A stretch of DNA of 64,000 bases. It comes from Escherichia coli. GTDB lineage: Bacteria; Pseudomonadota; Gammaproteobacteria; Enterobacterales; Enterobacteriaceae. The notes beneath the pieces are model-generated. The model had not been told where the DNA came from. It worked only from the letters and a program-made list of their open reading frames with translations, and did no database searches. The translations under genes were made by a program, and so were the position numbers. Positions 5,636 through 42,564 of this stretch are shown in pieces (the stretch's first letter is position 1; every line of letters begins with the position of its first letter). Where the stretch lies: assembly GCF_003991155.1 (NCBI RefSeq), contig NZ_CP031297.1. One strand, given 5' to 3'.

Positions 5636-5727
5636 TCTGGATTGAATTAGGGTTGCCCGAATTGGGCAGCTAGGCGGGGTTGCATTTTTGAAAAGTCCTG
5701 TACGCTGGTTGGTATAGGAGGTGAATA

Positions 5728-23047: not shown

Positions 23048-23472
23048 TGACACGGGCGGCTATGGCCGCGCTGTTATCCGCGTTGGTAATAGGCCTTGTG
23101 TCTGATTTGTCCGCACAAGAGCTGGTGGTAAGCCAGGTGGCTATAGACAAGTCCACTGAGGTGGAGAAAGAAGCTACCTTCCACAACCGCAAGTGGGTGT
23201 TAAGGACGGGGCAGGTTAGTGGATTCTTCATCTGCCAAGGAGATAACAAAGACATTTACTACCGGCATGACAGGGTGGGCGCTCACTGCCAGAAGACATC
23301 GACTGGGTGGCGCAATGTACTGGGTCTCAGGGACGATGTTCCGGAAGTTGAGCTGAGCGTGTACCTGGGGACCGTTGAAGGTGTCCCCGTGAAAGTCCTT
23401 CATCAGGAAGTGGATGGTTACGATCTGAAAGTGCAGTACAAGGTTGCACGTAAAGGGTCAGCAAATGAGTGA
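23044..23472 (+). CDS. secreted hypothetical protein
   Basis: 142 aa; signal peptide MMTRAAMAALLSALVIGLVSDLSAQ. Confidence 0.45.
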   Translation: MMTRAAMAALLSALVIGLVSDLSAQELVVSQVAIDKSTEVEKEATFHNRKWVLRTGQVSGFFICQGDNKDIYYRHDRVGAHCQKTSTGWRNVLGLRDDVPEVELSVYLGTVEGVPVKVLHQEVDGYDLKVQYKVARKGSANE

Positions 23473-24028
23473 GAGTGTGCGTCGGTCAACGCCGATGGTA
23501 AAGATTAAAATCCTGCCGAGTTTCGTAGGGGTTCCCTTCCCGTCGGTGCTACTTATCGTTGCGGGGCTCCTTAATGGCCCTTTGTGGGGCTTTGCCGCAT
23601 TCGTCTTTCATATCGTCATCAAGCGGTACATCTACAGAGAATACCGGAGGTTGCCATATCCGATGCCAACCGGCTCAAGGCCTATGGATGAGTTGAGCGA
23701 GCTCCTTGTAAAGGGGATACCGGAGGAATTTTTCCGGCGGCTTGACGCAGCTTGCAGCTCTGATGCGTCAGTACAAATAACCTGCCCAAAGAAATACCGG
23801 CTGCTCAAAATGTCGTTGAATCGCTATGCCAACCGCGCTGGTTGTTACCCGCAGTTCCGGGAGGGGGATGAAATAGCGATTGAGGTAACAGAGCAGAGAC
23901 CAAGAAAAGCAGGAGCAGGGAAGGGCTTTCCAAGTATTCAAGTTCTGAAAGCGTCAGAGGGTGTTCTGAGTGAACCGGAGCAGCCTATCGAAATTCAGAA
24001 AGATAAGCGCAAGATTATCTTGGATTGA
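23465..24028 (+). CDS. membrane protein with C-terminal tail PIEIQKDKRKIILD
   Basis: ~187 aa from ATG 23465; N-terminal TM helices; tail paralogous to 21504..22688. Confidence 0.5.
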   Translation: MSESVRRSTPMVKIKILPSFVGVPFPSVLLIVAGLLNGPLWGFAAFVFHIVIKRYIYREYRRLPYPMPTGSRPMDELSELLVKGIPEEFFRRLDAACSSDASVQITCPKKYRLLKMSLNRYANRAGCYPQFREGDEIAIEVTEQRPRKAGAGKGFPSIQVLKASEGVLSEPEQPIEIQKDKRKIILD

Positions 24029-24039
24029 GGTGGGTTGGA

Positions 24040-24609
24040 ATGCGGTCATTTTTATACAGAATATTGCTTCTTTGCTTCGTCATTATCGTCCAGATAGGGC
24101 TAATCGCCATTGATGCGAGCCCGTTGGTTGTTGCTATGTTCCTCTCGCTAACAGCTTTAGTCGCTGGGGTCTGGATGGCGTACCTTCATTCCCGATTTTT
24201 GATGGCGGTGACTCCAGTAGTTATCTCTGTGCTAATGGCGACCCTCGCCATGAAAATGTTTGAGCCGAGACTCTTTGTTTCTGCCAGCGAAAAAGGCTGG
24301 TTCCCTTTGTCATTGTTCGTCTCGATACCGTTTTACTTCTACTTGAGTTACTTGCTTGAGATAGAGGAGAAGAGACGTACATTCCGGGCCAATGTGATTG
24401 GGTTTTTGCGTGGAGTTTCGGAAGAGATCCGTCGTTCAACCAGAGAGCATAGAGATCAAGGTGAGATAAGACACGGTGGAACAGAGCTGGGGAGTATTGA
24501 CGAACTACAAAGGGGCGAGGCCAAAGAGCCAGAAGTCATCAGCTCTACATCGGACCAGAAAGAACAAGGCACTCCCAAGCGAGACAAGAGAAAAATCATT
24601 CTGGACTGA
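24040..24609 (+). CDS. membrane protein with C-terminal tail KRDKRKIILD
   Basis: ~189 aa from ATG 24040 (RBS GAGGTG); several TM helices; same terminal motif. Confidence 0.5.
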   Translation: MRSFLYRILLLCFVIIVQIGLIAIDASPLVVAMFLSLTALVAGVWMAYLHSRFLMAVTPVVISVLMATLAMKMFEPRLFVSASEKGWFPLSLFVSIPFYFYLSYLLEIEEKRRTFRANVIGFLRGVSEEIRRSTREHRDQGEIRHGGTELGSIDELQRGEAKEPEVISSTSDQKEQGTPKRDKRKIILD

Positions 24610-26891: not shown

Positions 26892-27254
26892 GTGAGAAGT
26901 GTTTTTGTATGGTTGAAGGCCGGGGCAATACTGGCTTTCCTATTCTTCGGTATTGCTGGTGCTGTCAACCGGGTCTATTGGGTTAACAGCCAAGGTTTGA
27001 GCCAGGGGTCGATGTCATCCACATTGGTTAAAGAAAAGTTTGGCCTAGACCTTGGTGCAATGTGCCGTTATGACAAACCCCAGCATGTCGAGTTCAAAGT
27101 CCTTCCTGATCAGACAATCCAGTTCCGCTGCTCATGGTTTGAAGGTGGCGGATTAACCTGGTGGCCTTTCTACACCGAGCATGATGTAAAGAGCGCCGAG
27201 GCGACCTCTGTGCTCAATGACATATTCCAGGGTACGGAGGGGCATGATGAGTAG
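26892..27254 (+). CDS. hypothetical membrane/secreted protein
   Basis: 120 aa with N-terminal hydrophobic segment. Confidence 0.4.
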   Translation: MRSVFVWLKAGAILAFLFFGIAGAVNRVYWVNSQGLSQGSMSSTLVKEKFGLDLGAMCRYDKPQHVEFKVLPDQTIQFRCSWFEGGGLTWWPFYTEHDVKSAEATSVLNDIFQGTEGHDE

Positions 27255-28491
27255 CCAGCTAGAACTCTTTCATGTCCAAGAGGCGTATGCCAAGGCCGAT
27301 AAGCCGTTATCGAATGAGGAGCTCTACGATTCGGTGGCAGAGCTCGCTGGAATCCCGAAAAGCGCTCTGAATGAACAAAGTGAAATTGGCAAGGCAAAGG
27401 TCAAGCGGAGCAAGCTGAAAAGACAGATACGCTGGTATCAGCAAACCCTCAAGTCGATGAACCTTCTCCAGAAGGTGGACGGCGAGCGGGGTGTCTGGGA
27501 GCTCTCAAGCAAAACCAAGAAGGGCCTGCATGAAGCGCTAGGTGGCGTTCGACTGGTCGCTTATTCAACAAATCTTGGGCTGGCGGTGTGGTCAAACAAC
27601 AAGAGCTTTTTCTCTGACCTCGATGAGCCGGTGCATCTGTGTGTGACATCTCCGCCGTTCCCGCTCCGTATACAGCGTGGCTATGGAAACGTTGATGAAG
27701 CCAAATGGGTGGATTTCATTACTCAGGCACTCGAACCGATAGTCAAGAACCTGGTGCCAGGAGGAAGCGTTGTCCTGAATGTCAGCAATGACATATTCGA
27801 GGCCAAGAGCCCCTCCAGATCTCTCTACGTTGAGCGAATGGTGCTGGCGCTCCATGATCGGCTTGGGCTCTCTCTCATGGATAGATGGCCGTGGATCAAC
27901 CTGTCAAAACCACCAAGTCCGACCCACTGGGCTTGTGTGAACCGTTACCAGTTGTGTGCCGGGTGGGAGCCTGTTTATTGGTTCACCAACGACCCTGACA
28001 GGGTGCGTTCTGACAACAGAAGGGTCCTGATCCCTCATACAGAGAAACATCAGAAGCTGATGGCCCAAGGCGGTGATAACAGAGTGGTCAGTTATGGTGA
28101 CGGGGCATATCGACTGAGAGGGAACGCATTCTCTAACGTCACGGAAGGACGGATACCGAAAAACGTTATCCAGCGCGGCCACCGTTGTGCGGATACTCTG
28201 GAGCTTCGGAGAATCGCTAGAGAACTGGGGTTGCCACCGCACCCGGCAATGTTCCCAACAGACATACCTGAAATGGCTATCCGCTTTCTGACGGAAGAGG
28301 GCGACCTTGTTGTTGATCCGTTCAGTGGGTCGAATAAGAGCGGGTTGGCCGCAGAAAGGAATAACCGGCGCTGGATCGCCTGTGACATCATTCTTGAGTA
28401 CATTCGCACCCAGGCGGAAATGTTCACCGGCTTTGATGGATTTTGGATGAACCCGGCCATAGCAGCAGTGGGCGGGGGAGCGTTGAATTAA
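27244..28491 (+). CDS. DNA methyltransferase, beta-class N6-adenine or N4-cytosine (orphan)
   Basis: Motif IV TSPPF precedes motif I VVDPFSGSNKSG; RBS GGAGG before ATG 27244; no adjacent endonuclease. Confidence 0.8.
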   Translation: MMSSQLELFHVQEAYAKADKPLSNEELYDSVAELAGIPKSALNEQSEIGKAKVKRSKLKRQIRWYQQTLKSMNLLQKVDGERGVWELSSKTKKGLHEALGGVRLVAYSTNLGLAVWSNNKSFFSDLDEPVHLCVTSPPFPLRIQRGYGNVDEAKWVDFITQALEPIVKNLVPGGSVVLNVSNDIFEAKSPSRSLYVERMVLALHDRLGLSLMDRWPWINLSKPPSPTHWACVNRYQLCAGWEPVYWFTNDPDRVRSDNRRVLIPHTEKHQKLMAQGGDNRVVSYGDGAYRLRGNAFSNVTEGRIPKNVIQRGHRCADTLELRRIARELGLPPHPAMFPTDIPEMAIRFLTEEGDLVVDPFSGSNKSGLAAERNNRRWIACDIILEYIRTQAEMFTGFDGFWMNPAIAAVGGGALN

Positions 28492-31740: not shown

Positions 31741-31767
31741 AAACCCGCCAATCGGCGGGTTTTTTTA
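31741..31767. terminator. bidirectional rho-independent terminator
   Basis: CCCGCC-AATC-GGCGGG hairpin with A-run upstream and T7 downstream, between convergent genes. Confidence 0.65.
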
Positions 31768-32433
31768 TGCTGCCACGGTAGCGGCGGTTGCTGGAGGTTT
31801 TTCGGCGTAGTAGGCGATGTTCTTGGTTCGTCTGCTAAGGGTGTCTATGCCGACGATACTCAGCGTTTTGGGAGTGGTATTGCGGGACTCGAAATAATGG
31901 AATAGCTGGATCATGCAGCACTTCACCATCAACGGATCGATGTCTTCCAGGTAGATTGAGGCTTCTCTCAATGCTTCGGGACCGTGGTTCTCGATCAGGT
32001 TTTCCATCCAGTGAATGGCGTTGATGCCAGAACCACAGCAGGGCTCATAAAAGTCTGCCGAAGACTGTGAGCCAACAATGAGTGACATCAAGCGGCCAAT
32101 CTCTGGAGGAGTGGGGAAGTAATTGGTGCCCTTCTTGTGGAAGCCAGACATGCTTAGGACGTAACCCAAAACATCGCTGGTGGGGTCGCGCTTAATGGCG
32201 GCAGACAGGACGTGAGAGAGCTCGAAGGCGACCGGCTGAAGTTCTTCCGGGATCTCCTCCTTGGCTGGGTATAGGCCAGTCTGCAAGTATGCCCACTGGT
32301 CAATAAAGGCCTCAACAAACCGAGATGTGCCCATTCTGTATCGGGACTGCTCGATGAGAGATAAAGCCTTGGATGTAAGTTGCTGTGTTTCTGGTGACAT
32401 AAGCGCTCCAGTTTGTTCTGACGAAACATTCAA
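31765..32433 (-). CDS. N6-methyltransferase-like protein lacking catalytic motif IV (possibly truncated)
   Basis: 222 aa; motif X NYFPTPPEI and motif I FYEPCCGSG present, no (N/D/S)PP(Y/F/W) motif. Confidence 0.4.
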   Translation of the reverse strand: MNVSSEQTGALMSPETQQLTSKALSLIEQSRYRMGTSRFVEAFIDQWAYLQTGLYPAKEEIPEELQPVAFELSHVLSAAIKRDPTSDVLGYVLSMSGFHKKGTNYFPTPPEIGRLMSLIVGSQSSADFYEPCCGSGINAIHWMENLIENHGPEALREASIYLEDIDPLMVKCCMIQLFHYFESRNTTPKTLSIVGIDTLSRRTKNIAYYAEKPPATAATVAA

Positions 32434-32847: not shown

Positions 32848-32862
32848 TGCCCAAAATGGGCG
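32848..32862. promoter_or_regulatory. TGCCCAAAATGGGCG motif
   Basis: Identical to copy at 18227. Confidence 0.4.
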
Positions 32863-32952: not shown

Positions 32953-33339
32953 GTGATATGTATGCCAAAGCAAGCAAATCATCTCCGTTTGAAGAAACCT
33001 TGCGCCAACTGTCCATTCCGGAAGGAGGGCGCTATCGAGCTGGCCCCTGGGCGATTAGAAGGCATCATCAACGACATCGTTGAAAACGACATGACGACGT
33101 TTCATTGCCACAAGACCGTGCACTCAAAGTCAGGTGGTGAATGGGATGAAGAGGGTAACTATGCACCTTCGGGACAAGAGTCGATGTGTGCCGGTGCTGC
33201 GGCTTACTTGATGAAAATAGGCAGGCCGACAGTGGCTATGCGAATTGCCTTTGCGTTTGGTGATGCAAAGGTGTCCGACTGGGACGAAGCTCAAGAGCTG
33301 GTTGTCGAGCCTTTGGTACAAGGGGACCGAAATGAGTAA
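32953..33339 (+). CDS. Cys-rich hypothetical protein
   Basis: 128 aa; CANCPF ... CH. Confidence 0.4.
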   Translation: MICMPKQANHLRLKKPCANCPFRKEGAIELAPGRLEGIINDIVENDMTTFHCHKTVHSKSGGEWDEEGNYAPSGQESMCAGAAAYLMKIGRPTVAMRIAFAFGDAKVSDWDEAQELVVEPLVQGDRNE

Positions 33340-33613
33340 GCGATATGCGGTAGTGCCGCATCCGAAACTGAAACGAGAGTACAAAGGTCGGCTGGTCAGA
33401 ACTACTCGGGTACTAAAAAACGGCTGGGGGTTGATCCCTCTAGGGGCTGTGGCAACGGTCACGCATCAGTCTCCCAAGGGATCAGAACTGACCTTTGAAC
33501 CATGCGACTGCTGCGGCCTGAAAGCCATTATCAGTCATGTAAGCATGGACTCCATTGAATTTATCGAACCGATTACTGAGGAAGAAGATGGACGAGAACA
33601 AGCTCAACATTGA
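33332..33613 (+). CDS. hypothetical protein
   Basis: ~93 aa from ATG 33332; contains CDCCG. Confidence 0.35.
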   Translation: MSKRYAVVPHPKLKREYKGRLVRTTRVLKNGWGLIPLGAVATVTHQSPKGSELTFEPCDCCGLKAIISHVSMDSIEFIEPITEEEDGREQAQH

Positions 33614-34262
33614 AACGGTCGATGGGCACAACGAGCTGGTAGTCAGCTTTTTGTCCAGAATGGTAAGCCTGAGTGACGAGGAAAAGCAGACAGTATTGTC
33701 CTGCCTTCCGGACACCGGCAAACAAACAATCACCCAGCTCTATGAGGCGCTGCGTTCTCAAGGGCACCAGGATCTTGCAGAGAAAGTCGAACCATACCTC
33801 CAGCAGGGGGTGTTTGGGCCGATCTTCGATAACGCCAAGTCCAAGGTGTTCGTTCGGGACGAAGCGCCTTTTTTCCTCATGGATGAAAATCCTTTGAACT
33901 GGGATGACGCTAAAGCATTCAATCGCCTACGTATGAGTACGACCTGTGTTCTTGGCCGTGGCGGCTGGACTATCGGTGAGCGCTTTGATGACCGCTTTGA
34001 TACCGAGGTGGGCGGAACACAGCTTATCGTCACTCAGTCACTCAACGAAAAAGGTGAGATTGAAGGAGGACTTCCTACCTCGATGTCGCTGAATGACTTT
34101 GCTGAGTTCCCTAAACAGCCAAGGCCTCCTCAAATAGTCGATTACCAGGAAGACAAGCGATACACGCTTGAGGAAGCGGAAGCTATCCCTGAGCTCGCAC
34201 CAGTGGTTCAGCGTCTGAAAGAGCGCATCGAAGAGTATGAGGAGAGAAGAGCCCATGATTGA
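33588..34262 (+). CDS. hypothetical protein
   Basis: ~224 aa from ATG 33588. Confidence 0.4.
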   Translation: MDENKLNIETVDGHNELVVSFLSRMVSLSDEEKQTVLSCLPDTGKQTITQLYEALRSQGHQDLAEKVEPYLQQGVFGPIFDNAKSKVFVRDEAPFFLMDENPLNWDDAKAFNRLRMSTTCVLGRGGWTIGERFDDRFDTEVGGTQLIVTQSLNEKGEIEGGLPTSMSLNDFAEFPKQPRPPQIVDYQEDKRYTLEEAEAIPELAPVVQRLKERIEEYEERRAHD

Positions 34263-34761
34263 CCTGACATGCCGCCTTTGTGCTGGTTCCGGTGTTTATG
34301 ACTTTTCCCCTTCCAAAGAAACCTGCGGTATGTGCCAAGGGCATGGGAAATTTGTTGACGCCAAAGCAATGCTGGTGGCTGCCATCGAGCTGGCAAAGAA
34401 GCAACGCGAGCCTGTCATTGAAGTGGTAATGGGGTTGGTGCTCCAGGGTGTGGATGTTAGAGGGAAGGAGCCTGGAGAGCGGTTCAAGGCTGCTCAGGCC
34501 TTTAACGCCCCAGGGCACAACCTATTACGATACGGGTGGGATGCTTGGGAGCTCTATGCCCTCCATGAGGGTGTAAGTCCAGAACTTGCATCGCTTGGCC
34601 GAAGTGTGATGCGCGAGTGGCATAGCCATTCATGGGGCCGGTTCAGTGGAGAGGTAGGCTTTAACGCCGCCGAGATCATGATCAAACAGGCCAAAGACAA
34701 CCCAGAAAAAGCAGAAGAGCGCTGGGCGTTCCTGCTTAGTGAAGAATGGATGGTGGAGTAA
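34255..34761 (+). CDS. hypothetical protein with two CxxCxGxG (DnaJ-type) zinc-finger motifs
   Basis: CRLCAGSG and CGMCQGHG near N-terminus. Confidence 0.4.
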   Translation: MIDLTCRLCAGSGVYDFSPSKETCGMCQGHGKFVDAKAMLVAAIELAKKQREPVIEVVMGLVLQGVDVRGKEPGERFKAAQAFNAPGHNLLRYGWDAWELYALHEGVSPELASLGRSVMREWHSHSWGRFSGEVGFNAAEIMIKQAKDNPEKAEERWAFLLSEEWMVE

Positions 34762-35078
34762 TTGTCGTGACAGAACAAACCAATAAGAAATTGATGCTGG
34801 ATGAGTCTCCAGATATGCCCCTGCAATTCAAGTGGAGAAAGTTTGGTGGTGCGATTTTTACTGCCACGCAAACAATGGAGCACGTCAAGGAAGGACGTAA
34901 GCTCGGGCCGACTCCAGCAGGGATGCTACCTCAAGAAGTGTGGCTGAACCGCCTGATCGCTATGGAAGAAACCCTGCCACGAGGGAAGTTTTTTGACAGA
35001 TTCCGCCGCCGCGACAAAAACGAGCAGTATGACTTGGCCGCCGATCATCTCCGTCTTGTCGGACAGAAAAAGCGATAG
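34746..35078 (+). CDS. hypothetical protein
   Basis: 110-aa ORF. Confidence 0.4.
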   Translation: MDGGVIVVTEQTNKKLMLDESPDMPLQFKWRKFGGAIFTATQTMEHVKEGRKLGPTPAGMLPQEVWLNRLIAMEETLPRGKFFDRFRRRDKNEQYDLAADHLRLVGQKKR

Positions 35079-35086
35079 GGGGATAG

Positions 35087-35587
35087 ATGAAAGCCCAGGC
35101 ATACCCACCATCAGTCATTCGTAAAGGCGCTGTGTTGTACGCAGCCCTTTATTACATCTCTGATGATGATAAAGCAAAGGTCGAGGTTACAGAGTGGATA
35201 GTTCGCTCTATTCAGAAACGACGCAACTCAACCAGCGATCAACGCTATGTCAATCTTGCCCAAAAGTTAGATGGGATTACGTGGGGGAAAAGGTCACGGA
35301 AGAATGGGGACTTTGGTTGGTTGCCATCTATACCGAGCTGGTGCTTGAAGCAGTTCCGGGAAGGTGGCGAATTGCCTTTTGGCGTTTATACGACGCGACT
35401 GGCCGCTCTCAAGTTTGCGAAAGTCAGCTTGCAGGAAGAGGTCCAATATTGCGAGGCCGAGCTGAAAAAGGCTCAGACAGAAGAGGATACTCAGGAACTC
35501 CAAGAGGAGCTGGCGGAGAACCAGAGACTTCTGAAAGCTGCTGGAGCAATGGTGAAGCGCGAGCAAAACAAGAAGAAAAGAGGTTGA
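35087..35587 (+). CDS. hypothetical protein with coiled-coil C-terminus
   Basis: 166-aa ORF. Confidence 0.4.
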   Translation: MKAQAYPPSVIRKGAVLYAALYYISDDDKAKVEVTEWIVRSIQKRRNSTSDQRYVNLAQKLDGITWGKRSRKNGDFGWLPSIPSWCLKQFREGGELPFGVYTTRLAALKFAKVSLQEEVQYCEAELKKAQTEEDTQELQEELAENQRLLKAAGAMVKREQNKKKRG

Positions 35588-35590
35588 CCA

Positions 35591-37018
35591 ATGTTACCGA
35601 TCGTCTCCCCCTCCGTAGTAACCAAACAACTTGCGTTCAATCGAGTAGGCGATAAACGCAAGGTTAGGGTTTCGTCCAACTTTTTGGATGTTATGGGGTT
35701 CAAGCCAGGTATGGGCATCGCCGTTGAGCCAGGGGAGGGGATGGGCGGTTTTTCGGTGATCCCAGCGACCGATGAACTACAGACACACCAGGTTTATCAG
35801 CGCCGGTATCAACCAAAGAGTCGCTCCAACAACCCGCTGGAAACCGTTATTGAGTTTTCTGGACAAGGGCTCATAGATAAGTGCTTCCCTCGCTATACAG
35901 AGCGTTTCCACGTCGAAATGCGAAAAGGTCGAGTAGTCTTCACTCCCGTCGCAAACAGAGCCTTTGCCATTGCTGATCGGTTCAGAAAAACCAGCCCTTT
36001 CCGTGCCTTTGTGGCATTGACTGGCGGGGTAGACATTCATGTTATGGAATCGCTTGGCTGGAAGGCTGAGATTGTTTTGGAACATCGTCCAGTTGAAGCC
36101 AGAGACAGAGCATCCGGGCGGAACCTGAGTGAAGTACATGCGCTCAATACGCTGGTGAACAGCTCCCCGCGTATCCTGCTGAATGAAGACATTCATCACC
36201 TGGAGCTGGATCGCCTTGGAGCCTTGCTGGCGGAGTGCCCACCAATTGGTTTGGCCCATTACTCGTTGGGGTGTGATGACCACTCAAACGCCAAAAGTCC
36301 AAGGGACAAAGAGCGTTCTCTTGAAGATCTCTCCACCATGCTCGACATGGTTTACCCGGCACTAAAACAGATCGAGGTCGTGAACCCTGCCGTCGTGCTG
36401 GTGGAAAACGTCCCGAACTTCAAAGCATCCGGAGCCGGGGCGATGATGGGAACGACACTGCGGCGGATGGGGTACTTCCTCACTGAGATGGTCTTGAACG
36501 GTCTGGATTTCGGCGCGTACCAGGGGCGAGAACGCTATTACATGGTGGCGTCGGTCTTCCCTGGGTTCGTTCCACCGAAACCTGAGCAGAGAGCTGGTGG
36601 ACGATTGTGGCCGGTGATCGAGAAGCACCTCGGGGATTGTGCAGACGTCACAGCGTTGAAGTCAATTCAGGCCAGAGAGTCAACTTCTCGCAGGATGCCT
36701 GCGTTCTTGACGAGAGAAAGCACCAGTTGCCCGACCATCCTCAAGTCTCAGGATCGTGGGGTAAAGGATGCAGTGTACATCCAAGACGGTGGCCGCATTT
36801 ACAAGCCATCGGTCGATCTGGTTCAGGAGTTGATGTCGATACCTGATAGCTTTGATATTTCGTGGATGGCAAAAGAACAAGCGACAGAAACACTTGGGCA
36901 GAGTGTGGATTACAGATTGCATTCAGCGGTCATGGCCGCAGTTCGGGATCACCTGAATGTGAATTGCGGTCGCCATACCGTGGTGCAGCACGGTATCAGA
37001 AGTAAGGAAGGTAAATAA
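35591..37018 (+). CDS. DNA cytosine-5 methyltransferase-like protein with N-terminal AbrB/SpoVT-like domain
   Basis: 475 aa; C5-MTase-like ENV motif (VLVENVPNF) and QxRxR motif (QGRERYYMVAS); candidate motif I EFSGQG; atypical Cys context SLGCDD; N-terminus resembles swapped-hairpin DNA-binding domain. Confidence 0.5.
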   Translation: MLPIVSPSVVTKQLAFNRVGDKRKVRVSSNFLDVMGFKPGMGIAVEPGEGMGGFSVIPATDELQTHQVYQRRYQPKSRSNNPLETVIEFSGQGLIDKCFPRYTERFHVEMRKGRVVFTPVANRAFAIADRFRKTSPFRAFVALTGGVDIHVMESLGWKAEIVLEHRPVEARDRASGRNLSEVHALNTLVNSSPRILLNEDIHHLELDRLGALLAECPPIGLAHYSLGCDDHSNAKSPRDKERSLEDLSTMLDMVYPALKQIEVVNPAVVLVENVPNFKASGAGAMMGTTLRRMGYFLTEMVLNGLDFGAYQGRERYYMVASVFPGFVPPKPEQRAGGRLWPVIEKHLGDCADVTALKSIQARESTSRRMPAFLTRESTSCPTILKSQDRGVKDAVYIQDGGRIYKPSVDLVQELMSIPDSFDISWMAKEQATETLGQSVDYRLHSAVMAAVRDHLNVNCGRHTVVQHGIRSKEGK

Positions 37019-37674
37019 TGGCAGTCATTTACTACGGCGAGGGAACCCATGACGCCGGTTTCGTCGGGTTCCGTGTCGCACGAACAGTTGGGGTGGCGGA
37101 TGATTACCGGCAGGAATACTTCTCCTTGAGAGAGTATTCCTACGCAACAGCTCACCGGCTGGCCTACAGCTTGGACCGAAAGTGGGAAGCTGAGGCAGAA
37201 GAGGTGAAGCGTCAGAATAAGACTTGTAAGCGGCGACGCAACTCCGGGCCAAATATCATTGCTGAGGGGCTGAGGGCTTATATCAGTATCGAGAACCGGA
37301 GCCGGATGGGGGTGAAGAGAACCTACTTCGCACCTTGTTTTCTCGTCACAAAGCCAGGCTACGGCAATGGGGATATTGTTTTCAGGATTTCCACTCATGG
37401 CTACGCAGAAGCCTACGAAAAGGCGGTGGAAAAATATTGTGAGATCCATGATTTGACGGATGAGCAGTATGTTGAGTTGCTTGACCGTATGCCGAGTACA
37501 GAGGTGTTCACTGGATACCTGCTGAATGCTCTTTTAATACGCGGTCATCGCGCCACAAAAGCTGAAATACTGAGTAAGCTGGGGGCTGCGAAGAATGAAG
37601 ATGACATCACCAATAGCAAAGGGAAAAGCGGCCACAACAGAGTGCGTTGCCCAGAGTATCGGTGGGCGCAATAA
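37018..37674 (+). CDS. hypothetical protein
   Basis: 218-aa ORF, start overlaps previous stop. Confidence 0.4.
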   Translation: MAVIYYGEGTHDAGFVGFRVARTVGVADDYRQEYFSLREYSYATAHRLAYSLDRKWEAEAEEVKRQNKTCKRRRNSGPNIIAEGLRAYISIENRSRMGVKRTYFAPCFLVTKPGYGNGDIVFRISTHGYAEAYEKAVEKYCEIHDLTDEQYVELLDRMPSTEVFTGYLLNALLIRGHRATKAEILSKLGAAKNEDDITNSKGKSGHNRVRCPEYRWAQ

Positions 37675-37729
37675 CAGCGCCAGATGTTCAAACCATGTTT
37701 TATAGCAACACCTCTTTGGGGGCGGAATT

Positions 37730-38347
37730 ATGTTTTTTGATAACAAAGTAGAATCTCACTCGCTCGTAATGGGAGCCAGCGGGAAGGGCAAATCGGTCTT
37801 GTCCGAACAAGTGCGGAAAAACGCGAGGCTGCGCGGTGATCTGCTGGTGGATACTGAGATGTACCGTGAAGGTCGAGGGTTGAAACCATACGAGCATGAG
37901 TACGCTCGTCGCTTAGTTCTGGGGCTAAGTGGACCGTTGCCGCGTGAACTGCGTGGGAAGCCGGTGACGGTTATCTCTGATGTGTCCAGACCAAAAAAGG
38001 TAAAGCGTCAGCCAAAGCAATTTGTTAAGACCGTAAATGGCGTCACCCTTGAACGCCAATTGGTGGCAGATGCAAGAGACCAGTTGGAAATGCAAACAGG
38101 CGTCTGGCTCAAACAACCTCAGCTCATCGAGCTGATGGAAGAGTCGGGCATAGACGAAACTCTAGCCGATTTTGGTGAGGCTGAAACACAGATCCGAGAA
38201 ATGCTGGCGGATGCGTTGGCGATGAAACTGGTAGGGCGCTCATGGCCCAAGTGTGGAGCCCTCTATAACGCGGCAGAAAAGTCCGACGTTAACTTTTCCT
38301 CCGAGCTTGATGCTGCGGCAAAAGAAGCTGGATACATGGTTCGCTGA
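37730..38347 (+). CDS. hypothetical protein
   Basis: 205-aa ORF. Confidence 0.4.
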   Translation: MFFDNKVESHSLVMGASGKGKSVLSEQVRKNARLRGDLLVDTEMYREGRGLKPYEHEYARRLVLGLSGPLPRELRGKPVTVISDVSRPKKVKRQPKQFVKTVNGVTLERQLVADARDQLEMQTGVWLKQPQLIELMEESGIDETLADFGEAETQIREMLADALAMKLVGRSWPKCGALYNAAEKSDVNFSSELDAAAKEAGYMVR

Positions 38348-38554
38348 ATGGGATTTGGTGTGGACAAGATAGATCGGCAAAGTTGGCTCGTTAAATTCAG
38401 GCGAGCGAAGTGTCAGGACACTTTAGACACGATGCGGGATGCGGCCATTCGCAACTATGAAGGGAATATTCGTGTTATCGCGGATATTGTATTGGCCCAT
38501 GAGGCGAGAGAGACAGAAATTGAAAAAGGGATGTTTTGTCTAATAGTTAGATAG
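38348..38554 (+). CDS. small hypothetical protein
   Basis: 68-aa ORF contiguous with previous stop. Confidence 0.3.
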   Translation: MGFGVDKIDRQSWLVKFRRAKCQDTLDTMRDAAIRNYEGNIRVIADIVLAHEARETEIEKGMFCLIVR

Positions 38555-38558
38555 TCTG

Positions 38559-38858
38559 ATGAGCTATCAGGTGGTGATTATGAAAAAGAGAATACTTCAT
38601 CTGCCCGTAAAAAAGATTTACTTCGATCAGATCAAATCTGGAGAAAAACCAGATGAATATCGCCTCGTCACAGACTACTGGATAAAAAGACTAGAGGGGC
38701 GCGAGTATGATGAAGTCCATGTTAAGTGTGGCTACCCAAAGGCTGGAGATATGTCCAGGATAGAGATTCGTCCTTGGCGTGGCTTCTCAAGGAACGTCAT
38801 AACGCACCCGCACTTTGGAGATTATCCGGTTGAAGTATTCGCCATCCATGTGAATTGA
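38559..38858 (+). CDS. ASCH-domain-like protein
   Basis: 99 aa; GxKxxExR-type motif (SGEKPDEYR); AT-rich relative to surroundings. Confidence 0.45.
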   Translation: MSYQVVIMKKRILHLPVKKIYFDQIKSGEKPDEYRLVTDYWIKRLEGREYDEVHVKCGYPKAGDMSRIEIRPWRGFSRNVITHPHFGDYPVEVFAIHVN

Positions 38859-42550: not shown

Positions 42551-42564
42551 TGCCCAAATTGGAC
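42551..42564. promoter_or_regulatory. TGCCCAAATTGGAC motif (third family variant) in traI upstream region
   Basis: Divergent region between lipoprotein gene and traI. Confidence 0.35.

Follow-up and report, generated by a model that had tools for sequence, protein, structure and literature searches.

The IncC plasmid gene dcm2 probably encodes a divergent orphan C5-cytosine methyltransferase with a predicted MraZ/AbrB-like N-terminal barrel

Introduction

The C5-cytosine methyltransferases of Pfam family PF00145, exemplified by M.HhaI, M.HaeIII and Dcm, are two-lobed enzymes in which motifs IV, VI and VIII, a target-recognition region and motifs IX and X follow in a set order, with a catalytic Cys, the Glu of an ENV motif and an Arg-x-Arg pair at the active site. 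All of these features are shared by the product of dcm2, a gene located in a 64,000-nucleotide stretch of Escherichia coli DNA (assembly GCF_003991155.1, contig NZ_CP031297.1; hereafter the window) that constitutes the backbone of an IncC (IncA/C2) conjugative plasmid. In contrast to the PF00145 enzymes, Dcm2 lacks the Pro before the catalytic Cys, carries Asp rather than Gln after it, has a motif I of the form [T/S]GG[V/I]D in place of FxGxG and a motif X of GQS in place of GNS, is longer by ~16 residues from motif II to motif III, a stretch that holds invariant Arg and Asp peculiar to the clade, and adds an N-terminal domain of 125 residues. The closest described counterparts of this additional domain by predicted fold are MraZ (PF02381) and the AbrB/SpoVT/MazE group (PF04014).

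The gene itself is already named and annotated. In the IncC literature, dcm2 is a 1428-bp gene, vcrx042 in pVCR94, that belongs to a set of three “dcm” genes conserved in the backbone (PMC6555945; PMC7498323) and lies at 23130-24557 of pVCR94 (Carraro 2014 Dataset S1), while RefSeq gives its product in an identical IncC plasmid as “DNA cytosine methyltransferase.” Around the gene, 2.7 kb of the window match hundreds of IncC plasmids at 100% identity, their hosts including Klebsiella, Salmonella, E. coli and Vibrio; the matching plasmid records number 1048 in total, and the window gene is this conserved backbone gene. The complete architecture, with both N-terminal domain and methyltransferase, is present in at least 100 protein clusters; a first-pass annotation made from the sequence alone had not recognised the architecture as a common one, but with these plasmid records (>1000) and clusters it is not rare in sequence space. 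Matches in a phage collection were limited to mis-filed IncC records and yielded no phage homologues. The present result is thus an annotation refinement of a known gene and not a new kind of system; what is added here is that predicted structure assigns the 125 N-terminal residues to an MraZ/AbrB-like barrel restricted to the clade, together with a description of the non-canonical motifs of the clade.

The reading that we favour, with a probability of roughly 0.6, is that Dcm2 is an active S-adenosylmethionine (SAM)-dependent orphan C5-cytosine methyltransferase whose basic MraZ-like barrel would hold an acidic enzyme body on DNA, and which would be expressed together with the transfer regulon for protective or epigenetic marking of the plasmid. 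It belongs to a divergent clade of C5-methyltransferases whose genes reside on plasmids and further mobile elements.

Results

The dcm2 open reading frame (ORF) occupies 35591-37018 on the + strand (as do all features of the gene described below), begins with ATG and encodes 475 residues. It is a genuine coding sequence (CDS): direct reading of the sequence reveals a Shine-Dalgarno element, AAGAGG (35578-35583), 7 nt 5' of the start codon, the stop codon of the upstream ORF (35585-35587) ends 3 nt before that start, and the dcm2 stop codon shares one base with the start codon of the ORF that follows (TAATG, 37016-37020).

Comparison by profile and by structure places residues ~138-460 (36002-36970) in the C5-cytosine methyltransferase fold, in agreement with the first-pass proposal of a methyltransferase-like protein. 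PF00145 is matched above its cut-off (E 1.2e-9; 38.5 bits, cut-off 22), over residues 228-320 only, and phrog_116 is matched with E 2.5e-20. When the family profile was aligned to M.HhaI with HHalign, the probability reached 97.5% (E 5.5e-12) over residues 218-440, and the N-lobe (residues 138-217) was too diverged for alignment to M.HhaI. An AlphaFold model built from the family alignment is confident (predicted local distance difference test, pLDDT, 91.7; predicted template-modelling score, pTM, 0.83), and a Foldseek search with it gave M.HhaI with E 3e-17 and a target TM-score of 0.70-0.73 over ~350 aligned columns, the best PDB matches being M.HhaI, Dnmt2, M.HaeIII and other C5 methyltransferases. 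This likeness is far beyond chance.

Conservation was examined in a family alignment of 39 full-length relatives that cover 33-100% identity. Invariant across these relatives are Cys228, Glu272, Val274, Arg313, Arg315, Gly146, Asp148, Glu199 and Gly436-Gln437-Ser438, and Glu164, Asn198 and Asp200 are conserved in at least 90%. The HHalign comparison pairs the central residues with their counterparts in M.HhaI: Cys228 with Cys81, Glu272 with Glu119, Arg313 and Arg315 with Arg163 and Arg165, and Gln437 with Asn304, along with motif IX with motif IX, ENV with ENV and GQS with GNS. Because the catalytic and cofactor residues are invariant or nearly so down to 33% identity, the pattern points to purifying selection on catalysis, as would be expected of an enzyme in use and not of a decayed one.

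The individual motifs define what is peculiar to the clade. Motif IV is SLGCDDHS (36263-36286), with the catalytic Cys228; the canonical Pro-Cys-Gln is replaced family-wide by [G/Q]-Cys-Asp within the consensus S-[L/P]-[G/Q]-C-D-[D/E]-[F/H]-S, in which the residue before the Cys is Gly, Gln or another residue and never Pro in the 39 relatives. The atypical Cys context that had been noted from SLGCDD (residues 225-230) is therefore a family trait. The two other signatures recognised at first pass likewise hold up, namely the ENV of VLVENVPNF, which is motif VI (residues 272-274, 36404-36412), and the QxRxR motif, which is motif VIII, QGRER (residues 311-315, 36521-36535). A target-recognition region with conserved R367, T382, K385, S386 and D393 extends between motifs VIII and IX (36554-36796), and its mean identity of 43% is close to the value for the remaining protein. 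The segment from motif IX (RIYKPSVDLVQELMSIPDSF) to motif X (GQSV) covers 36794-36907, with Gln437 replacing Asn304 of M.HhaI.

In the N-lobe, the loop 143-LTGGVD-148 (36017-36034), which follows the first Rossmann strand (residues 138-142) in both model and alignment, is the probable motif I variant, with a family form of [T/S]-[G/S/A]-G-[V/I]-D in which only Gly146 and Asp148 are invariant. The candidate motif I named at first pass, EFSGQG, is ruled out: residues 88-93 fall within the N-terminal domain, in its second β-α unit, which consists of strand 84-89 and helix 92-98. The motif II region, LEHRPVEARD (36077-36106), contains Glu164 at the end of strand β2 together with the clade-specific invariant residues Arg166, Arg171 and Asp172, and motif III is NEDI (36182-36193), with Asn198, Glu199 and Asp200. 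Both Glu164 and Asp200 fall at the expected strand ends in alignment and model, and from this topology Glu164 may correspond to the ribose-binding Glu40 of M.HhaI.

Ahead of the enzyme lies a basic domain of residues ~10-132 (35618-35986), predicted to form a single-chain, tandem swapped-hairpin-like barrel of the MraZ/AbrB fold class. Its first β-α-β-β unit (residues 23-58, RKVRVSSNFLDVMGFKPGMGIAVEP...GGFSVIP, 35657-35764) comprises strand 22-29, helix 30-34, strand 42-47 and strand 54-58, with S28, N30, L32 and G53 invariant, and its second unit (residues 83-120, 35837-35950), which holds EFSGQG, comprises strand 84-89, helix 92-98, strand 105-111 and strand 114-119, with E84 invariant. Strands 10-15, 17-19 and 69-72 and helix 122-133 complete the predicted domain, which is modelled with confidence both separately (pLDDT 89) and within the full-length protein. 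In barrels of this class the two β-α-β-β units come from two chains in AbrB and from one chain in MraZ. The AbrB-type N-terminus suggested earlier thus stands as to topology, in the predicted structure, and falls as to size, as the domain has ~125 residues (~10-132) and not ~60; it is reasonable to read it as a complete MraZ-like tandem barrel and not as a 60-residue half that would need dimerisation.

At the level of sequence, the searches for a relationship to described domains returned nothing firm. Pfam gave no match to the domain of Dcm2, including to PF04014, the family by which an AbrB domain was to be recognised, and across 33 aligned N-terminal domains only scattered matches under the cut-offs appeared (E 0.04 or worse, one member each). 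Weak hints of SymE_toxin arose at E 0.15 among these 33 domains and at E 4.8e-4 in a more distant homologue. A PDB profile search returned nothing, HHalign gave 0.5% against E. coli MraZ and 0.1% against an approximate AbrB sequence, PHROGs and PADLOC profiles gave no support for AbrB/MraZ homology, and aligning one half of the domain to the other with HHalign revealed no internal sequence duplication. Foldseek found no significant match in the PDB, with MraZ entries at the top by TM-score (up to 0.44), while the B3, EcoRII-N and BfiI-C pseudobarrels score far under MraZ, match the topology in part and have no sequence link to the domain.

Compared with MraZ and AbrB, the domain is likewise basic, as expected of a DNA binder. 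It differs from them in having no detectable sequence similarity, no internal repeat, no significant Foldseek score and no DxxGR signature, and in carrying extra strands at residues 10-19 and 69-72. MraZ, AbrB, MazE and VapB are transcription factors, and whereas MraZ and AbrB act as free proteins of this kind, the Dcm2 domain is fused to an enzyme.

Charge and conservation suggest what this domain may do. Across the 39 relatives its mean isoelectric point is 10.5 (range 9.6-11.5) versus 5.9 for the methyltransferase part, Lys or Arg is conserved at positions 12, 23, 24, 26, 71 and 78, and, with a mean of 45%, its identity to the window protein resembles that of the target-recognition region. 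Since it is so strongly basic, the predicted barrel is probably an extra DNA-binding module, and a role in site targeting, as proposed earlier, is plausible.

An exhaustive hidden Markov model search with the N-terminal domain profile retrieved 121 proteins among 1.84 billion representatives. All long bacterial matches that were checked combine the domain with the same methyltransferase clade, recognisable by QCDDFS, ENV, GQSV and xG[V/I]D, and measure either ~475 residues or ~560-685 residues with an insert of ~100 residues between domain and enzyme. Because the full-length proteins that carry the domain all belong to the Dcm2 methyltransferase clade, it is an accessory dedicated to these enzymes and not a shuffled regulator. 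The insert-bearing proteins (560-685 residues; P0178, P0183, P0187, P0195, P0201 and others) form a sister group. Short matches, considered as free-standing versions of the domain, are fragments at contig ends or from frameshifts that continue into motif I, and the match to P0240 (3045 residues) is a false positive, a eukaryotic Ig/FN3 protein. A 196-residue ORF on the Neptuniibacter halophilus plasmid NZ_AP027293 (L004, 4959-5549) has the N-terminal domain only, with 47% identity to residues 7-137; the reading frame stops at the edge of the domain and overlaps terminally with a convergent gene for a WYL-domain protein. This ORF is the sole candidate for a free-standing domain and is probably a truncated remnant.

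In the window, dcm2 is gene 7 of 11 in a tightly packed same-strand operon of small genes of unknown function (32962-38858, + strand), delineated from the ORF list and the RefSeq annotation of an identical plasmid and equivalent to vcrx036-044. Pattern searching located an AcaCD-box-like sequence, TGCCCAAAATGGGCG (32848-32862, + strand), in the intergenic region, ~100 bp upstream of the operon's first gene. This agrees with the published ChIP-exo peak, motif and transcription start site for AcaCD 5' of vcrx036, the predicted vcrx036-vcrx044 operon (Carraro 2014 Table S3) and the rise in vcrx036 expression from 0 to 320 upon AcaCD induction (Carraro 2014). Since its start codon lies 3 nt after the upstream stop, dcm2 has no dedicated promoter in the window plasmid and is an internal member of an AcaCD-activated operon.

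Box-like sequences of this kind (TGCCCAAAWAGGGCA, at most 3 mismatches) occur 14 times in the window versus 3.75 expected by chance. Those at 5654, 18227, 32848, 42551, 50255, 50926, 55204 and others lie for the most part directly 5' of same-strand gene blocks, and the one at 42551 is the published divergent traI/vcrx059 promoter.

The methylase is an orphan, as had been suggested. No restriction endonuclease gene adjoins dcm2 in the window, where Pfam gave its neighbours no match above curated cut-offs and no nuclease domain, and none appears as a conserved partner in four distant homologous loci (L002, L003, L005, L006). One of these loci lies on a 349-kb Ralstonia replicon, another on a 358-kb soil contig and the remaining two on contigs of 185 kb and 296 kb; all four carriers look like large mobile elements. 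The homologues sit among small genes of unknown function, often near other orphan methyltransferases, and the flanking genes differ among the loci, which disposes of a conserved partner gene or nuclease. An intergenic gap of their own precedes the homologues in L002 and L003 (~120 bp) and in L006 (~200 bp).

Several neighbouring genes deserve mention in their own right. The first gene of the operon (32953-33339, + strand) has a weak DUF6283 match (E 0.007), and 2 kb upstream of the Ralstonia homologue there is likewise a DUF6283 gene (L002, 5445-5894), which is the sole hint of a shared neighbour. Directly downstream of the soil homologue, L003 9521-10363 matches DUF559 and MTES_1575; DUF559 is presumably a Vsr-like endonuclease-fold family, which would fit a true producer of 5-methylcytosine (5mC) in that contig. 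Divergent from the dcm2 operon is a 222-residue N6_Mtase-like ORF (31765-32433, - strand) for which Pfam covers the first third of the profile; its equivalent, vcrx034, shows essentially no expression (Carraro 2014 Dataset S1). Within the transfer region, the ORF at 55264-60786 (+ strand, 1840 residues) contains DUF4165, Big_3_2, Big_3_3 and PKD domains and is a large surface or adhesin-like protein.

Discussion

The favoured reading of Dcm2 as an active orphan methyltransferase can be described part by part. The chemistry would be performed by the C-terminal ~325 residues: a flipped cytosine would be attacked at C6 by Cys228 and its base held by Glu272 together with Arg313 and Arg315, while Glu164 and Asp200 would grip the adenosyl moiety of the cofactor. 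Folded within one chain as an MraZ-like double swapped-hairpin barrel, the N-terminal ~125 residues would supply an additional DNA-binding module whose basic surface may tether or target an otherwise acidic enzyme to DNA. As dcm2 is internal to the AcaCD-activated vcrx036-044 operon, its expression should rise as the plasmid becomes transfer-competent, and such transfer-linked expression would fit a mark placed on plasmid DNA near the time of conjugation, either protective against restriction or epigenetic. The analysis shows the fold, the conserved motifs, the lack of a nuclease partner, the position in the operon and the confinement of the N-terminal domain to one clade; catalytic activity, DNA binding by that domain and the biological role are inferred.

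Two further observations favour this reading. Deletion of dcm1-3 together abolished transfer in one study (PMC6555945). A parallel exists within the window itself: a second orphan methyltransferase (27217-28491, + strand) joins Mrr_N (residues 28-104) to N6_N4_Mtase and, like dcm2, is an orphan on a conjugative element with an N-terminal domain of a DNA-binding type, although it is an amino-methyltransferase and not a C5 enzyme and carries a winged helix and not a swapped-hairpin barrel. The same Mrr_N and N6_N4_Mtase combination recurs 4 kb from the Dcm2 homologue in the soil contig (L003, 13447-14670).

A number of points weigh against an active methyltransferase of this kind. None of Pro-Cys, FxGxG and the motif X GN is kept in its canonical form, and NCBIfam TIGR00675 (dcm) gives 38.3 bits, far under its cut-off of 100.65. 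When Vibrio cholerae with and without an IncC plasmid was compared with SMRT (single-molecule real-time) as well as bisulfite sequencing, small motif-less changes and no new motif were reported (Wang et al. 2019, PMC6555945), in a comparison that covered neither dcm2 alone nor induced conditions. Likewise, no methylation motif, activity or target is attributed to dcm2 in the literature searched, single deletion of dcm2 left plasmid stability unaffected (PMC6555945), and single dcm deletions left the escape from restriction unaffected (PMC7498323). A cytosine methylase encoded by IncC plasmid pKAZ3 confers ~2700-fold protection against EcoRII (Dimitriu et al. 2024). The arm of the primer used for its knockout is absent from the 64-kb window, and because of this the protection belongs to a different dcm gene; EcoRII (CCWGG) protection is consequently rejected for dcm2. 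Lastly, vcrx042 RNA values of 48 in the wild type, 31 in ΔacaCD and 113 upon induction are noisy and not significantly AcaCD-dependent (Carraro 2014 Dataset S1).

A different view, which appears unlikely to us, is that the Dcm2 clade is not an ordinary sequence-specific methylase producing 5mC in double-stranded DNA: the MraZ-like domain might deliver the enzyme to a particular DNA form or site, such as the transferred strand, whether incoming or outgoing, or repeated plasmid sites, or the remodelled pocket might change what is transferred or when. If true, this would explain why bisulfite methylomes and single knockouts saw nothing.

A more specific proposal along these lines, and one that we consider rather improbable, is an active enzyme with a non-standard substrate, either single-stranded transferred DNA or a DNA structure picked by the N-terminal domain, or one that transfers a group other than methyl. 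The invariant deviations around the pocket (Gln437 for Asn in motif X, Asp229 for Gln in motif IV, and the extra Arg166/Arg171/Asp172) would be in keeping with this proposal, as would the lack of a new motif in standard bisulfite sequencing and the presence of Dnmt2 and CmoX among the structural neighbours with scores near that of M.HhaI; motif X, however, also varies in ordinary methyltransferases, that of DNMT3 being GRS. CmoX (PDB 8yf3), a phage DNA cytosine C5-carboxymethyltransferase, is the C5-methyltransferase homologue that lends the idea a precedent, as its cofactor was switched through the motif X position, Asn304 to Arg350 (PMC12783734). In the same study (PMC12783734) CmoX has SPPC, Arg at the position of M.HhaI Asn304 and a cmoA partner, whereas Dcm2 has [G/Q]C (SLGC), Gln437 and no cmoA nearby. 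Gln437 is uncharged, carboxy-SAM needs Arg or Lys, and no cmoA-like gene is present among the annotated neighbours or in the distant neighbourhoods inspected; a CmoX-like carboxymethyltransferase identity is ruled out by Gln437 and by the absence of cmoA from the annotated neighbourhood.

The self-regulating methylase put forward at first pass, in which the AbrB/MraZ-like domain would act as a repressor at an operator and set the expression of its own enzyme, in the manner of C-proteins and the N-terminal regulatory regions of some methyltransferases, is in our judgement distinctly improbable. The structural neighbours of the domain, MraZ, AbrB, MazE and VapB, and the upstream gaps of the homologues in L002, L003 and L006 lean towards such a role. 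In the window plasmid, however, dcm2 has no dedicated promoter and lies within an 11-gene operon whose promoter is under AcaCD, and self-regulation is therefore unlikely there; it would also leave unexplained why the domain is absent, alone or on other enzymes, from the 1.84 billion representatives. A catalytically silent, methyltransferase-like protein that flips bases or binds DNA, for example to shield sites or organise plasmid DNA, would accommodate the lost Pro-Cys, the altered motifs I and X, the lack of an attributable 5mC motif and the single knockouts without phenotype, but it is very improbable, as C228, E272, R313, R315, E164 and D200 are invariant or nearly so over 33-100% identity, which would be unexpected for a dead enzyme.

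Returning to an active orphan C5-cytosine methyltransferase as the preferred reading, its significance lies in the carrier. IncC plasmids rank among the major carriers of multidrug resistance, have an unusually broad host range and possess five orphan methyltransferase genes. With dcm2 already known, the gain is one of refinement rather than discovery. Recognising dcm2 as a distinct clade with a dedicated domain of a DNA-binding type, a remodelled active site and a place in a transfer-activated regulon may guide the search for its modified target, and the same line of work bears on whether dcm2 helps the plasmid to cross restriction barriers.

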